DNA of 24,737 nucleotides from a virus: the IMG/VR virus record IMGVR_UViG_3300026280_000003; one strand, given 5' to 3'. The notes beneath the pieces were generated by a model, which had not been told where the DNA came from, did not search any database, and saw nothing but the letters and a program-made list of their open reading frames with translations. The position numbers and the translations under genes were made by a program. This document shows, piece after piece, positions 5,684 through 9,422 of the stretch (positions within the stretch are counted from its first letter, which is position 1; every line of letters starts with the position of its first letter).

Positions 5684-5902
5684 ATGAAAGATGTGCGAAA
5701 AATCATTGAAGATTGGCTCGAGAACAGGATGTGGCATCTCATACCACAAGAGACACGGCAAAAAGCGGAGCAGTTGTTGCAGCAAGGGGTTGCGGGAATC
5801 GATTTAAAGGGTCTCATCATCGTGCTTCATCATTTTGTTACTGAACCGGTCGAGACTCGTTACGGAACCGACATCGTAGCGCAACGAAAGGCAGTAAAAT
5901 AA
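5684..5902 (+). CDS. Hypothetical protein (72 aa), first gene of the only plus-strand operon
   Basis: ATG preceded by GGAAAGGAGGGGTGAAGG; no recognisable motif. Confidence 0.5.
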   Translation: MKDVRKIIEDWLENRMWHLIPQETRQKAEQLLQQGVAGIDLKGLIIVLHHFVTEPVETRYGTDIVAQRKAVK

Positions 5903-5956
5903 AAGTGGAAAACAACAAATGCCGTCGGGGAACGACGGCAAAAGGGAGGGGGAAGT

Positions 5957-6310
5957 ATGGGAAAGATAACTTTAGAGTCATTGGAGGCACCCTATGTCTT
6001 AAAAGAAAGCACGTATTTCTGGCGGACGGAGCGGCATGCGGCCGCGCGCCGCAGCCGCGAGAAATACTACGTGAGCCTGGTAGAAGACTGGTTGAGGCGC
6101 CTTTGTGAACAACACGGGTTGAACCTCAGAATTGAAAAGACAGACACGAGCGTCGCGGCATACAACAAAGATGAGCAGGTATTCAAATTCACAATCAGGT
6201 TAAGTTGCCGCCACGTTTACAAGAGACAAGATGTGAAAAAGTTACTGCGGCTGGTTTCTGAAACGCAAAGGAAAGGAGGTGACGGACGTCCTCCCGCGGC
6301 AGGGGAGTAA
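5957..6310 (+). CDS. Hypothetical protein (117 aa), basic
   Basis: ATG preceded by AGGGAGGGGGAAGT; no recognisable motif. Confidence 0.5.
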   Translation: MGKITLESLEAPYVLKESTYFWRTERHAAARRSREKYYVSLVEDWLRRLCEQHGLNLRIEKTDTSVAAYNKDEQVFKFTIRLSCRHVYKRQDVKKLLRLVSETQRKGGDGRPPAAGE

Positions 6311-6339
6311 AAACGGAGAAGAGGAGGTGGAAGCCCGCG

Positions 6340-6693
6340 GTGGGAGGCGCGGGCAAGGCGATGGGAAAGGCAGAAGTACTTCAAAAGCTGCGCAAATTCT
6401 TGAGAAAGAATCTCTGGGAGATCCCCGAGGTCCAAGAAGCGGTCGCGCAGTTGGAGAGATTGGCCGCGCAGCACGATTGGTACCCCTCAGACGTGCTCAA
6501 CTTTGAAATCATGTATGAGAACAAGCCGCGAGCGCTCAGGATAATTTTCAGTGCTCCTGTTGAAACGCTCGGCGAAGACTCCGTAAAAGAGATGCACCGC
6601 TGGCAAGAAGTAATAGCGACCGCAGTCCAGTCCTTTGTTTTGAAAACCCTCGAAGCCGAAGGTCTCCCATGGGAAATTGTGAACGAGCTCTGA
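6340..6693 (+). CDS. Hypothetical protein (117 aa by the track GTG start; alternative ATG at about 6361)
   Basis: GAGGAGGTGG about 9 nt upstream of the GTG at 6340; ends at a TGA immediately before the bidirectional terminator. Confidence 0.5.
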   Translation: MGGAGKAMGKAEVLQKLRKFLRKNLWEIPEVQEAVAQLERLAAQHDWYPSDVLNFEIMYENKPRALRIIFSAPVETLGEDSVKEMHRWQEVIATAVQSFVLKTLEAEGLPWEIVNEL

Positions 6694-6710: not shown

Positions 6711-6741
6711 AAAAGGTCCGCTCACGAGGAGCGGACCTTTT
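6711..6741. terminator. Bidirectional intrinsic terminator between convergent genes
   Basis: AAAA-GGTCCGCTC-ACGAG-GAGCGGACC-TTTT: 9-bp perfect GC-rich stem flanked by an A-tract and a T-tract; located between the plus-strand stop at 6693 and the minus-strand stop at 6744. Confidence 0.8.
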
Positions 6742-6743
6742 GC

Positions 6744-7244
6744 TCAAATCTCGTCGACGTCCAGCACGTCGAAGCGGGTGTATCCGCCAAGCACAAGCGC
6801 TGATTCGATCGCTTCATCGATCATGAAATAACGTTTCGGCAAGAGTACGAACGGTGTGAACATGCGGTATTCGTATTGATACGTGCTTTCGTCGCGCACG
6901 ATGGCAAAAACGTGATTTCGTTCGGGGCGTTTGTGTACCCCTGTGATGTAATATGCCTTCCTCCCGAGCGCCTGCGCGAGCCTGCACACAGCAAGAGCGA
7001 AATCGTCGCAATCTCCTCCGCCGCGCCTTACGAACGCTGGCAAGTCGTATTGGATGTCGAGAAGTCCCCACAGCGGGTCGGGAATGTAGCGAAAGCGCGT
7101 CATGAAGTTTGCGACATCGTCGAGCGTGCGCATCTTGTATGCCTCGGCAATTTTCCTCGCGTACTCCTTTGCGCCTTTTTTGCCTTTTCGAAAGAGCATT
7201 TTCAAGCGGACGTAGAGGCCGAGCATGCCATGGCCACCCCTCAT
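6744..7244 (-). CDS. Transglutaminase-like cysteine peptidase fold protein, last gene of the lysis cassette
   Basis: GGGDCDDFALAVCRLAQALG matches the transglutaminase-core active-site pattern G-x-C-x-x-F-A; a downstream His (NHVFAIV) and Asp candidates are present. ATGA overlap with the upstream small membrane ORF. Confidence 0.5.
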   Translation of the reverse strand: MRGGHGMLGLYVRLKMLFRKGKKGAKEYARKIAEAYKMRTLDDVANFMTRFRYIPDPLWGLLDIQYDLPAFVRRGGGDCDDFALAVCRLAQALGRKAYYITGVHKRPERNHVFAIVRDESTYQYEYRMFTPFVLLPKRYFMIDEAIESALVLGGYTRFDVLDVDEI

Positions 7245-7411
7245 TTTGTGAACTTGCTCGCCACATTGCTGCCGCAGTAGATTCCGAACAACGCGATAAC
7301 GACGTGGGAAAAGTTATCGTTGTCGATCTTGTCGAAAACTTTGAGGAGAAAAAAAGCCGCAATGAGAAGCAGCGCCAAGATGAATTTGCGGCTTTTCCAC
7401 TTCTCTTCCAT
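7241..7411 (-). CDS. Small two-TM membrane protein (56 aa), holin-like
   Basis: Hand-translated: MEEKWKSRKFILALLLIAAFFLLKVFDKIDNDNFSHVVIALFGIYCGSNVASKFTK. RBS GAGGTGA; two hydrophobic segments; stop overlaps the next start. Not in the ORF track (under 60 aa). Confidence 0.45.
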   Translation of the reverse strand: MEEKWKSRKFILALLLIAAFFLLKVFDKIDNDNFSHVVIALFGIYCGSNVASKFTK

Positions 7412-7415
7412 ACGG

Positions 7416-7778
7416 TCACCTCACGAAGAGCAAAACGAGCGTTCCTATCGTGATCGCTCCGACGACAATCCATGCAACTCTTTTTTGTTTGTCTAACTCT
7501 GTTTTCAGCCTCTGTACTTCTTCAGCAAGCGCTTTCTTTTCCGCTTTCTCGAGCTCCAGCATATCGCGCAAAACTTGCACTTGTTGTTCGAGATTCGCAA
7601 TTTGCGCGCGATAGTTCTGATTCAGCTCCTCCAGCTGTTTGATGTAGTTTGCGAGCAAAATCACCGTTTCTTCGTCGAGATAATATCTGCCGTCCTCGGC
7701 ACGCTGAATGATTTTGTATTCGGCGAAGAGAGAAACGACGGCAAAGAGGATCAACAATATCAGAAGCCTCTTCATCAC
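7416..7778 (-). CDS. Membrane protein with N-terminal signal/TM, central coiled coil and C-terminal TM; spanin-like (unimolecular-spanin architecture, no lipobox Cys)
   Basis: MMKRLLILLILFAVVSLFA... then heptad-rich QLEELNQNYRAQIANLEQQVQVLRDMLELEKAEKKALAEEVQRLKTELDKQ, then WIVVGAITIGTLVLLFV; RBS GGAGGGATCGTG. Confidence 0.45.
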   Translation of the reverse strand: MMKRLLILLILFAVVSLFAEYKIIQRAEDGRYYLDEETVILLANYIKQLEELNQNYRAQIANLEQQVQVLRDMLELEKAEKKALAEEVQRLKTELDKQKRVAWIVVGAITIGTLVLLFVR

Positions 7779-8008: not shown

Positions 8009-8320
8009 TCACTTTTTAAGTTTCTTTAGTACCTCGTTCAAGTACTCAATCGCCTCATCCACGTTGTTGAAGTGCTTTTTGTCGTAGATGATCTTTTCCT
8101 CTGCTTTGAGCTTTTCAAGCTCTTTTTCAAGCTTATCAAGCTCCGCTGTCTTACGTTTTTTAATCTCCTCTAACTCTGTTTTCAGCTGTTGCCTTTGCTT
8201 TTTCTTCGCTAACTCCGCTCCGCCGACGAACGCGACTAACGCGAGGATGAGCCACCAAAACCGCTTGACGAATTCTGTTGACGCTTTGAAAAACTCTTTA
8301 ATCACCTTCACTATTTTCAT
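8009..8320 (-). CDS. Type-II membrane-anchored coiled-coil protein (about 103 aa), i-spanin-like
   Basis: Likely ATG start at about 8320 (RBS GGAAGGTGAG); the track ORF extends to 8380. N-terminal TM FWWLILALVAFVGGA followed by a Lys/Glu-rich coiled coil. Confidence 0.45.
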   Translation of the reverse strand: MKIVKVIKEFFKASTEFVKRFWWLILALVAFVGGAELAKKKQRQQLKTELEEIKKRKTAELDKLEKELEKLKAEEKIIYDKKHFNNVDEAIEYLNEVLKKLKK

Positions 8321-8696
8321 TCGTCTCACCTTCCTTCGTGAGTAGTAAATCAACCAACCTGCGCGCTTGTTCGTTTGCAAGGAAGCTCACAAGACCCGTG
8401 GCGATCGCATCAACAAAATGTTCGTTCTTTCGCACACTGTGCCGCAAAGACTCATGACCCGTTATGTACCCAATTGCGTGCAAGACTTCGTGAAACAATG
8501 TTTGTGCAAACTGAGTTCGTGAGAGAAGCGGAGACACGTAGATGCGAGCATCCTCGAGGTCATAAGCGACGTGAAGTCCTTGTGTGGTTTCAATTTCCAA
8601 GCCTTCCTCTTCGCACGCCTCGGAAAGTTTTTGTTCGTCGCATATAATTCTGTATGGAACGCCTAAAATCCTTACACTTATCTCAAATCCTTTCAT
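8298..8696 (-). CDS. HExxH zinc-metallopeptidase-like protein (132 aa), translationally coupled to the endolysin
   Basis: Motif TLFHEVLHAIGYITGHE (HExxH plus a downstream His/Glu); the start ATG overlaps the endolysin stop (ATGA). Confidence 0.5.
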   Translation of the reverse strand: MKGFEISVRILGVPYRIICDEQKLSEACEEEGLEIETTQGLHVAYDLEDARIYVSPLLSRTQFAQTLFHEVLHAIGYITGHESLRHSVRKNEHFVDAIATGLVSFLANEQARRLVDLLLTKEGETNENSEGD

Positions 8697-9187
8697 CGCT
8701 TACCCTCCCCTTTGAGTCGCCAAAACTCGCTCCAAAAGAGGAAATCAATCAAGTGCGCTTTTGTCTCTTGCGGTACAGCTTCATCGATTTTGCAATTCGA
8801 CGGATCTCGCATCGCCAGCCAATTCAAAACGTTCCCAATACCCCAATTGTATGCCATGACCGCGAGAATGTCGGCACGTTCGTAGTCGAAAAACATTCTG
8901 TAAAGACGTCTAAGATAGCGAATCCCAACAAAGATGTTGCGGTCTGGTCTAAACATGTCATCGTAGTCGAAGTTTGTTGAATAAATCTGGTTTATATCCT
9001 CGAGCGCCGCGCGCGAGACCTGCATAAGTCCTCTCGCATATCCCGAATCCGCGTTAGGATCCCAGGCGCTTTCGGTTTCAATCAGCGCAAAAACGTGGTG
9101 CAACTTCGGAAAGTCCGCGACCTTGTACGCCGTCACAAAGTCAACATAGTGTGCCTCAACTAAGTGTTCAAGCATTTTTCTTGTCAT
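8693..9187 (-). CDS. Endolysin, lytic transglycosylase (SLT domain)
   Basis: Family-1 lytic transglycosylase motifs: ETES (catalytic Glu), GLMQV, and AYNWG; no signal peptide or TM segment. Confidence 0.8.
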   Translation of the reverse strand: MTRKMLEHLVEAHYVDFVTAYKVADFPKLHHVFALIETESAWDPNADSGYARGLMQVSRAALEDINQIYSTNFDYDDMFRPDRNIFVGIRYLRRLYRMFFDYERADILAVMAYNWGIGNVLNWLAMRDPSNCKIDEAVPQETKAHLIDFLFWSEFWRLKGEGKR

Positions 9188-9191
9188 GTCC

Positions 9192-9422
9192 TCACCTCCT
9201 CAGAAGGAAGGAAATTAACAAACTTATAACCGCCGAGGAAGTGAGAACCGCGAGAAAGATTTCACCGACCATGGCTTTCACGACGCCACGAACACGATTT
9301 TCCAAGTAGCCGTTTAGACGATCGGACAAGGACTTGAGTTGCTGTTTTATCTCCTCGATGTCCTTTTCCTGTGCCTTTAACAGTGTTTCAACCGCCGCAA
9401 TTCTTTCGCACAAGTTGTCCAT
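9192..9422 (-). CDS. Small tail-anchored membrane protein (76 aa), holin-like candidate
   Basis: N-terminal coiled coil and C-terminal TM (IFLAVLTSSAVISLLISFLL) ending in RR; RBS GAGGTGG; immediately upstream of the endolysin. Confidence 0.4.
   Translation of the reverse strand: MDNLCERIAAVETLLKAQEKDIEEIKQQLKSLSDRLNGYLENRVRGVVKAMVGEIFLAVLTSSAVISLLISFLLRR

Follow-up and report, generated by a model that had tools for sequence, protein, structure and literature searches.

We analysed a 24,737-nucleotide (nt) stretch of viral DNA from IMG/VR record IMGVR_UViG_3300026280_000003, hereafter the window. It belongs to a 50.8-kb metagenomic contig (JGI 3300003688, Ga0061020_1000041) that comes from a siphovirus-like phage whose head module is of the Mu type. 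In the window, a module of genes on one strand, separated by short gaps and ending at a hairpin, follows downstream of the tail genes (Table 1). The last of these genes encodes a small protein that we refer to as the hydrolase. The module joins a muralytic enzyme to small membrane proteins on a single strand at the end of the late genes, as phage lysis cassettes do. A sequence-only reading of this DNA had placed a transglutaminase-like cysteine peptidase gene at the end of a lysis cassette, and in the window this gene does lie downstream of genes for an XhlA-like protein, an SLT lytic transglycosylase (hereafter SLT), a protein with an HExxH motif and several small membrane proteins. The hydrolase is best described as belonging to a small uncharacterised family in the transglutaminase-like protease superfamily that is recurrently tied to phage lysis genes.

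The locus at the end of the late genes

The open reading frame (ORF) for the hydrolase (6744..7244, minus strand) encodes 166 amino acids (aa) and contains, exactly, both motifs that the sequence-only reading had singled out, GGGDCDDFALAV and NHVFAIV. The in-frame ATG at 7244 would give six more residues than the ATG at 7226 and is unlikely to be used; the ATG at 7226 is the likely start of a 160-aa protein. The gene-caller product (P0001, 160 aa, 100% identical) begins at this second methionine, the N-terminus MLGLY/MLDFY is common to the hydrolase and its three closest relatives, and a Shine-Dalgarno-like sequence precedes the same codon. The closest relatives have a GTG start after GAGGTGA at the equivalent N-terminus. 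Between the upstream 56-aa gene and the hydrolase gene there is a gap of 14 nt in the window and 5 nt in the relatives, with no overlap. Coupling of the two genes through an ATGA had been proposed, and the overlap is there in the letters (7241-7244), but we rejected a coupled start at 7244 as very improbable, given the conserved N-terminus and the placement of the Shine-Dalgarno-like sequence. A start at 7226 makes the ATGA very probably incidental to the upstream stop codon and would leave the two genes tightly linked without overlap. Residue numbers below are those of the 160-aa protein; adding six gives the numbering of the 166-aa ORF.

Three nt past the hydrolase stop codon begins the hairpin, which is shared with a convergent plus-strand gene ending at 6693. 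A 71-nt stretch of this region has a minimum free energy of -26.9 kcal/mol (z = -2.4). The hairpin is a candidate for the bidirectional terminator described in the sequence-only reading; a simple terminator scan left it unflagged because its T-run is short.

Within the module, the metallophosphoesterase gene forms the border on the tail-gene side, a position kept in the related loci L002-L005 and L022; its product may be a tail-associated enzyme or a partner in lysis. The XhlA-like protein, encoded by the first module gene, is 55% identical to the protein encoded directly before the hydrolase homologue of L030. The HExxH protein, encoded directly after SLT, gives weak matches to Peptidase_M78 and DUF6782 and may be a small metallopeptidase, a second uncharacterised peptidase of the lysis module. 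The 120-aa protein is conserved in L002, L012 and L022, and the 56-aa protein is 84-89% identical in L002 and L012 and 46% identical in L022. The latter has two hydrophobic segments, as had been noted for the ORF just upstream of the hydrolase, and is a holin candidate. We also observed that the 103-aa protein, with an N-terminal transmembrane (TM) segment and a coiled coil, resembles an i-spanin, its PHROG spanin matches being weak, and that the 120-aa protein is hydrophobic at both ends, a topology like that of a unimolecular spanin, without a lipobox Cys.

Table 1. Features of the hydrolase gene, of the surrounding module and of an insertion found in related loci.
Feature	Position	Strand	Details
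Cysteine hydrolase gene, 160 aa	6744..7226	-	predicted transglutaminase fold, LapG-like; stop codon 6744-6746
Shine-Dalgarno-like sequence GAGGGGTGG	7234..7242	-	7-nt spacer to ATG 7226; overlaps stop codon of 56-aa gene
Asp72-Cys73-Asp74 codons (Asp78-Cys79-Asp80 in 166-aa numbering)	7005..7013	-	Cys73 is the putative nucleophile
His105 codon (His111)	6912..6914	-	putative catalytic His; aligns with LapG His
Thr124 codon (Thr130)	6855..6857	-	third-triad position; end of strand 118-124
Hairpin, 13-bp GC-rich stem, AAAAGGUCCGCUC-loop-GAGCGGACCUUUU	6711..6741		A-run and T-run flanks; bidirectional terminator candidate
56-aa protein, two TM segments	7241..7411	-	holin candidate; phrog_20455 'unknown function' E 2.4e-4
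120-aa protein, N-terminal hydrophobic segment, coiled coil, C-terminal TM	7416..7778	-	weak Rz-like spanin/holin PHROG matches
103-aa protein, TM and coiled coil	8009..8320	-	ORF open to 8380; weak Rz-like spanin matches, phrog_736 3.9e-5, phrog_739 4.6e-4
HExxH protein (LFHEVLHAIG), 132 aa	8298..8696	-	phrog_1233 2.3e-9; phrog_87 'metallo-protease' 2.8e-6
SLT lytic transglycosylase, 164 aa	8693..9187	-	endolysin candidate; PF01464 E 3.8e-18 (above cut-off); phrog_669 'endolysin' 1.9e-14
XhlA-like protein, 76 aa, C-terminal TM	9192..9422	-	first module gene; phrog_1193 'hemolysin' 7e-6
Calcineurin-like metallophosphoesterase, 264 aa	9479..10273	-	PF00149 E 1.3e-6, above cut-off
Trypsin_2-like serine protease, 301 aa (related loci)	L002 6495-7400; L012 433-1338		PF13365 E 3.5e-19

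A predicted transglutaminase fold and its active site

We modelled the hydrolase with AlphaFold 2 from a 66-sequence alignment, obtaining a predicted local distance difference test (pLDDT) score of 94.7 and a predicted template-modelling (pTM) score of 0.91; this model supersedes an earlier one built from five sequences (pLDDT 74). The modelled fold, an N-terminal helical lobe with the nucleophile helix against an antiparallel beta-sheet, is that of the transglutaminase-like superfamily, and on this model the hydrolase is a transglutaminase-fold cysteine hydrolase (papain-like clan CA superfamily). Structures listed as evidence for the fold, each with its listed value, are 3kd4, a putative protease (12.1); 7pjo, CPR-C4 (11.0); 4fgo, LapG (9.5), whose 20% identity is the highest in the list; 2f4o, PNGase (8.7); 8jx4, PeiW (8.7); the vasohibins 6j4s and 6wsl (8.6 and 8.5); and 3isr, a putative cysteine protease (8.4). 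A single-sequence search of the PDB gave one match, Legionella LapG (E 5e-5), and a 30-sequence profile matched LapG of L. pneumophila (E 4.5e-11) and of P. fluorescens (E 3.1e-7). Comparing the 66-sequence family with Cobetia LapG by hhalign gave a probability of 97.8% and E 7.8e-13 over 79 columns. The Cobetia protein is a genuine LapG reference, encoded in a Lap operon (L016) with LapD and a type I secretion system. The alignment stops shortly past the His, and the C-terminal lobe lies outside it. The sequence-only reading had named a transglutaminase-like cysteine peptidase and proposed structure prediction as a check; the predicted fold, the LapG profile matches, and a Cys at the N-terminus of a helix with a His at the start of a strand all agree with that identification.

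We counted residue conservation over 66 relatives, down to ~20% identity. Asp72-Cys73 is present in 66 of 66 and His105 in 65; position 74 is D or E in 64 and position 75 in 57. Upstream of the Cys, Tyr47, Asp50, Gly54 and Asp57 are near-invariant (Asp50 in 63/66, Asp57 in 56/66). In the model, Cys73 is the first residue of helix 73-86, His105 the first residue of strand 105-113, and Thr124 the last residue of strand 118-124, the next strand after the His strand; Cys73, His105 and Thr124 are thus placed by the model at the canonical triad positions of the transglutaminase fold. A Cys-His-Asp triad had been anticipated, and its Cys and His are borne out by their conservation, but a Thr takes the position on the neighbouring strand where the superfamily has Asp, or else Asn or Glu. 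Across the relatives this third-triad column reads D23 S17 T9 E6 N6 G2 C1 L1, with D, E, S, T or N in 61 of 66; the position is thus polar without being fixed. Vasohibins are proposed to use Cys-His-Ser/Thr triads, and such triads are also reported for some Transglut_core proteins (PMC4866520). We considered Asp112 (Asp118) as the third triad residue and rejected it; it is unconserved, its column reading I10 D9 K9.

In sequence alignment, the acidic residues at the calcium-site positions of LapG and DvhG are conserved in D72-C73-D74-D75, D50 and D57, and the Y-x-x-D...G-x-x-D loop upstream of the Cys aligns with the LapG calcium loop. In LapG, D139, two residues past the Cys, is a calcium ligand (PMC4866520), and in P. 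fluorescens LapG D111 binds a second calcium ion (PMC4359373); counting in the profile alignment, Asp50 appears to occupy the position of D111. In DvhG, either the D316A/E318A change at the predicted calcium site flanking the Cys or mutation of the Cys abolished activity (PMC13090378). From these residues we infer that the hydrolase would be catalytically active and probably calcium-dependent.

A HMMER search of 1.84 billion cluster representatives returned only 74 proteins at E <= 1e-3, mostly of 150-210 aa; these family representatives stand for clusters at 50% identity. In a set of 30 relatives, close and intermediate, Transglut_core is matched by 13 and DUF553 (PF04473) by 11 at E < 0.01, and the Bacteroidota homologue (L014) scores 61.5 bits against Transglut_core. 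Searching 50,697 GenBank phage records with the hydrolase by tblastn gave no match, nor did the 7 kb around its gene match GenBank phages by blastn. Among GenBank phages the portal protein finds relatives of only 25-27% identity, and that collection therefore has no cultured relative. A scan of IMG/VR gave one distant relative, of high G+C content and uninformative context. PADLOC defence models gave no hits for the hydrolase gene or its neighbours, and a published survey of endolysin diversity makes no mention of transglutaminase domains (PMC9371310).

Relatives, gene neighbourhoods and host

In L002-L005 and L012 (64-68% identity), the gene order is as in the window. Next to the module in these relatives, on the opposite strand, lie a serine recombinase and a CI-like repressor; in these temperate relatives, as at L002 8471-10564, the recombinase and an S24/CI-type repressor converge on the hydrolase gene. 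The 301-aa trypsin-like protease is inserted between the genes for the TM/coiled-coil proteins in L002 and L012, and is not in the window or in L003-L005. As many as three predicted peptidases, each of its own catalytic class, can accordingly share one lysis module.

At the corresponding site of the window (5684-6693, plus strand), where the temperate relatives have recombinase and repressor, we observed three small genes without family matches, and the 20 kb that we examined showed no integrase. In lifestyle or module content, the phage of the window may be unlike its relatives.

More distant loci keep the partners in other orders. L022 encodes SLT, the HExxH protein, a p123-like protein, the hydrolase, a p120-like protein and a 56-aa-like protein, the partners being 32-51% identical to those of the window; between the window and L022 the hydrolase is 49% identical and SLT 40%. 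In L030 the order is HExxH protein (28%), XhlA-like protein (55%), hydrolase (31%) and SLT (47%). The HExxH protein co-occurs with hydrolase and SLT in L002, L022 and L030. Linkage of the hydrolase to SLT, HExxH, XhlA-like and small membrane proteins thus persists at ~30% identity and in altered gene orders. The terminal position reported in the sequence-only reading holds in the window and fails as a trait of the family: the gene is internal in L022, and in L030 it follows the XhlA-like gene and precedes SLT. In L028 a membrane-anchored homologue (P0012) is directly followed by a metallophosphoesterase (L028 1009-1674), and in the Bacteroidota element L014 a TM/coiled-coil protein and a GH108 lysozyme are encoded three genes downstream of the homologue. 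The sequence around P0010 and P0007 was too short or uninformative.

The hydrolase itself has no signal peptide: in sequence and model, it starts with an amphipathic helix that bears charges and packs into the domain. We considered its N-terminal hydrophobic-basic stretch as a membrane anchor or signal-anchor-release sequence and rejected this, the stretch being short, charged and confidently modelled within the helical lobe. The L030 homologue carries a lipoprotein signal, LSLTAC, and further family members have lipoprotein signals, signal sequences or N-terminal membrane anchors. In one NCBI assembly, a copy of the hydrolase domain is embedded in a 1436-aa tape measure protein (PF10145; P0036, L026 1212-5522) at residues ~831-892, with 46% identity over 68 residues that include GGGDCDDFA and the His. 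Tape measure proteins commonly carry peptidoglycan hydrolase domains, and the fusion suggests that the domain is also used during infection.

We noted two further groups of homologues. P0004 (132 aa, 54% identity, aligning from query residue 32) occurs at L006-L011 in non-phage chromosomal contexts and was seen in eleven contigs from hot-environment metagenomes. Several of its loci have a 53-aa ORF ~200 nt upstream, and several have hicAB toxin-antitoxin genes nearby; P0004 may be a domesticated or decaying copy. L021, from a metagenome-assembled genome (MAG) titled Methanosarcinales, has the neighbours seen in the Melioribacter/Melioribacteraceae loci L017 and L020, a secreted protein of ~675 aa and then a 227-aa protein. 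An archaeal distribution, suggested by two MAG titles, is doubtful, since the L021 neighbourhood is of the Ignavibacteria type and the sequence was probably misbinned.

The only named host lead is a 66%-identical fragment covering residues 48-113, without an intact ORF, in Pseudothermotoga sp. UBA12540 (L013 8001-8201), found by a pattern scan with a seven-sequence alignment. Immediately beside it, on the opposite strand, lies a TnpB/IS605-like gene (8204-9394), and the fragment has the look of a remnant prophage broken up by an insertion sequence. The G+C content of 48% matches this lead, and tetranucleotide correlation gives it weak support (r = 0.74 for Pseudothermotoga vs 0.69 for the Bacteroidota locus). 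The host is a probable member of the Thermotogota. The toga of these bacteria consists mostly of beta-barrel protein sheets tethered by the SLH-domain protein Omp-alpha, with only small lipid patches (PMC10160955), and the D-Lys content of Thermotoga peptidoglycan is cited in PMC9790342.

Possible role in lysis and comparison with known enzymes

We consider it reasonably probable that the hydrolase is an envelope-directed accessory enzyme of lysis. The more complete account, which as a whole explains the data best and which we hold at slightly better than even confidence, is an active cysteine amidohydrolase of the late lysis module with an envelope amide bond as its target. The interpretation given in the sequence-only reading was largely right, with corrections to the start codon, to the triad and to terminality as a trait.

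Because it lacks a signal peptide, the hydrolase would build up in the cytoplasm and gain access to the envelope only after permeabilisation of the membrane. The small membrane proteins, the holin candidates, would permeabilise the inner membrane and let both the hydrolase and SLT reach the envelope; we infer both this holin-dependent release and the envelope target. There, Cys73, activated by a His105 that Thr124 orients, would attack an amide bond of an envelope component. The substrate we prefer, tentatively and at somewhat less than even confidence, is a peptide of peptidoglycan, either in stem peptides or in cross-links. We favour it because the hydrolase is paired with glycosidases, and because a tape measure protein, a type of protein in which wall-hydrolase domains are common, carries a copy of the domain. 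Peptide cutting by the hydrolase would then complement the glycan-cutting SLT, much as PeiW and PeiP act on the peptides of pseudomurein.

Several findings weigh against this account. LapG, the closest characterised relative, cleaves protein and not peptidoglycan. The hydrolase is a single domain of 160 aa without a cell-wall-binding domain, and Thr replaces the canonical Asp at the third triad position in it and its close relatives. As a single sequence it falls below threshold for every Pfam and NCBIfam model: the CEP76 peptidase-like model (24.5 bits, cut-off 27.8), Transglut_core (PF01841; 21.4 bits, cut-off 23, E 3.3e-4), Peptidase_C93 (PF06035; 11.9 bits, cut-off 27) and NCBIfam LapG (NF045674; 12.8 bits, cut-off 320). 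Some distant members also stand outside lysis modules. P0016 (L029 2754-3320, 28% identical) has a glycosyltransferase gene on either side; its 199.5-kb contig also encodes ribonucleotide reductase and possibly belongs to a jumbo phage. P0006 follows a terminase-like gene in a non-lysis setting, and in Ignavibacteria-type loci the domain lies within secreted proteins of ~675 aa.

The two roles suggested in the sequence-only reading, a cell-wall endopeptidase and an envelope protease, are still the foremost candidates. As an envelope protease, the hydrolase would cleave protein in the periplasm as LapG does, cutting Omp-alpha tethers, other toga proteins or a surface adhesin. Together with the HExxH protein and, in relatives, the trypsin-like protease, it would in this way detach the protein-rich outer sheath and finish the outer-envelope step of lysis. 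LapG is indeed the best characterised sequence match, down to the positions of the calcium loop, and the other predicted peptidases of the module (the HExxH protein, and the 301-aa Trypsin_2 protein in L002 and L012), the exported and lipoprotein members of the family, and the Pseudothermotoga host lead with its largely proteinaceous toga (PMC10160955) all fit a protein substrate. However, what resembles LapG is the catalytic core and calcium loop and not a substrate-binding region, the LapG and BTLCP family models are far under threshold, and the window encodes neither LapD nor a type I secretion system nor an adhesin partner. The host assignment, moreover, rests on one pseudogene fragment, one MAG and weak similarity in composition, and homologues are also found beside lysozymes in Bacteroidota, whose outer membrane is of the ordinary kind. 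On this balance we regard cleavage of an envelope protein as rather unlikely.

A narrower proposal, which we find somewhat more doubtful still, is that phages of Thermotogota, and the relatives of these, use a multi-peptidase module, in which the hydrolase and the HExxH protein, sometimes with a trypsin-like protease, stand by SLT, and in which the hydrolase has one of two roles. In the first, it would sever toga tethers or sheets as a proteolytic counterpart of the outer-envelope step that spanins perform when the host is an ordinary Gram-negative bacterium. In the second, it would be an isopeptidase for the unusual gamma-D-Glu to epsilon-D-Lys bond or for D-Lys cross-links, both of which Boniface and colleagues are said to have described in Thermotoga peptidoglycan in 2009. 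Bonds of this type are the chemistry for which transglutaminase-fold enzymes are known.

Adjacency to lysis genes could also be positional only. The hydrolase gene might be cargo or a lysogenic-conversion gene that closes the late operon, or its product might work inside the cell on host or phage proteins as a protease, deamidase or acyltransferase, for example in processing a holin, antiholin or virion protein. Beside the gene in temperate relatives is the recombinase and repressor module, where cargo genes are common; the protein has no signal peptide; the transglutaminase fold also serves acetyltransferases, glycanases and glutaminases; and the family includes isolated copies or remnants by HicAB genes in chromosomal contexts and distant members away from lysis genes. 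Yet the gap of 5-14 nt upstream leaves no space for a separate promoter, and in L022 and L030 the gene moves within the module while keeping its partners, unlike cargo genes. It is also as conserved as SLT between the window and L022 (49% vs 40%), relatives carry export signals, a tape measure protein contains one copy as a fusion, and no defence-system model matches. We judge a role outside lysis improbable. Least likely is a catalytically dead or structural protein of this fold, such as an envelope-binding module: Thr in place of the canonical Asp would suit it, but the strict Cys, the His in 65/66 and the retained calcium-site acids, down to ~20% identity, form a pattern typically seen in enzymes that are active, 61/66 sequences have D, E, S, T or N at the third position, and Cys-His-Ser/Thr triads have precedent in vasohibins and some Transglut_core proteins (PMC4866520).

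The lysins known from bacterial phages comprise glycosidases, amidases and endopeptidases of the CHAP/NlpC-P60, M15 and M23 types, and the documented lysins with a transglutaminase fold, PeiW and PeiP, are confined to methanogen viruses. If our preferred account of an envelope amidohydrolase is right, a LapG-like enzyme in the lysis module of a bacterial phage would be a new enzyme class in the lysis toolkit, and for work under anaerobic conditions it would supply a cysteine hydrolase that is thermostable and can be switched by calcium. If the host belongs to the Thermotogota, the hydrolase would give a handle on phage exit through a proteinaceous toga and D-lysine-containing peptidoglycan, and the copy fused to a tape measure protein perhaps a handle on entry through the toga as well. 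The family of 74 cluster representatives is largely missed by present Pfam and NCBIfam models.

Among known groups, Transglut_core (PF01841) is matched by relatives of the hydrolase, which itself falls just under the cut-off; DUF553 (PF04473) is matched by 11 of 30 relatives and not by the window hydrolase itself. No defined function is attached to either family name. The LapG-related vasohibins and CPR-C4 provide precedent for Ser/Thr at the third triad position, and they share an acidic residue two past the Cys that aligns with the LapG calcium ligand (both PMC4866520). They differ from the hydrolase in setting, vasohibins acting in eukaryotic tubulin detyrosination and CPR-C4 being a protease of the Candidate Phyla Radiation, and identity is 9-12%.

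The pseudomurein endoisopeptidases PeiW and PeiP (MEROPS C71, PF12386) of Methanothermobacter viruses serve lysis in thermophilic anaerobes, the kind of host that is probable for the hydrolase too, and like the hydrolase they are virus-encoded. Their Cys-His-Asp triad shows homology to transglutaminases, and their activity requires a reducing environment and is stimulated by Ca2+ or Mg2+ (PMC2989375). PF12386 is absent among Pfam hits of the hydrolase at E up to 1, and there is no sequence-level match to Pei; judged by sequence, the hydrolase is not a member of the Pei family. Unlike the Pei enzymes it has no pseudomurein-binding repeat domain, its host would be bacterial, with murein, and it is encoded beside a separate glycosidase, whereas Pei is the only named lysin of its viruses.

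LapG and the BTLCP family (MEROPS C93, PF06035) include the best characterised sequence relative of the hydrolase. Both proteins are single domains of similar size with the nucleophile motif G-D-C-[DE]-D-[FY]-A, in which acidic residues flank the Cys. In contrast to LapG, which is periplasmic, the hydrolase has no signal peptide; its third triad residue is Thr where LapG has Asp; it scores far below the family thresholds; and it is phage-encoded, inside a lysis module. LapG cuts its adhesin at a di-alanine site in a calcium-dependent manner. We took as Lap partners a LapD-type receptor, a type I secretion system and a large adhesin with a [T/A/P]AAG site, and neither the window nor the related phage loci encode LapD, type I secretion or adhesin partners. 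On model scores, signal peptide, Lap partners and the canonical Asp, the hydrolase is not a member of LapG/BTLCP. It is nonetheless homologous to the transglutaminase-like proteases of the LapG type, and is predicted to work as they do.

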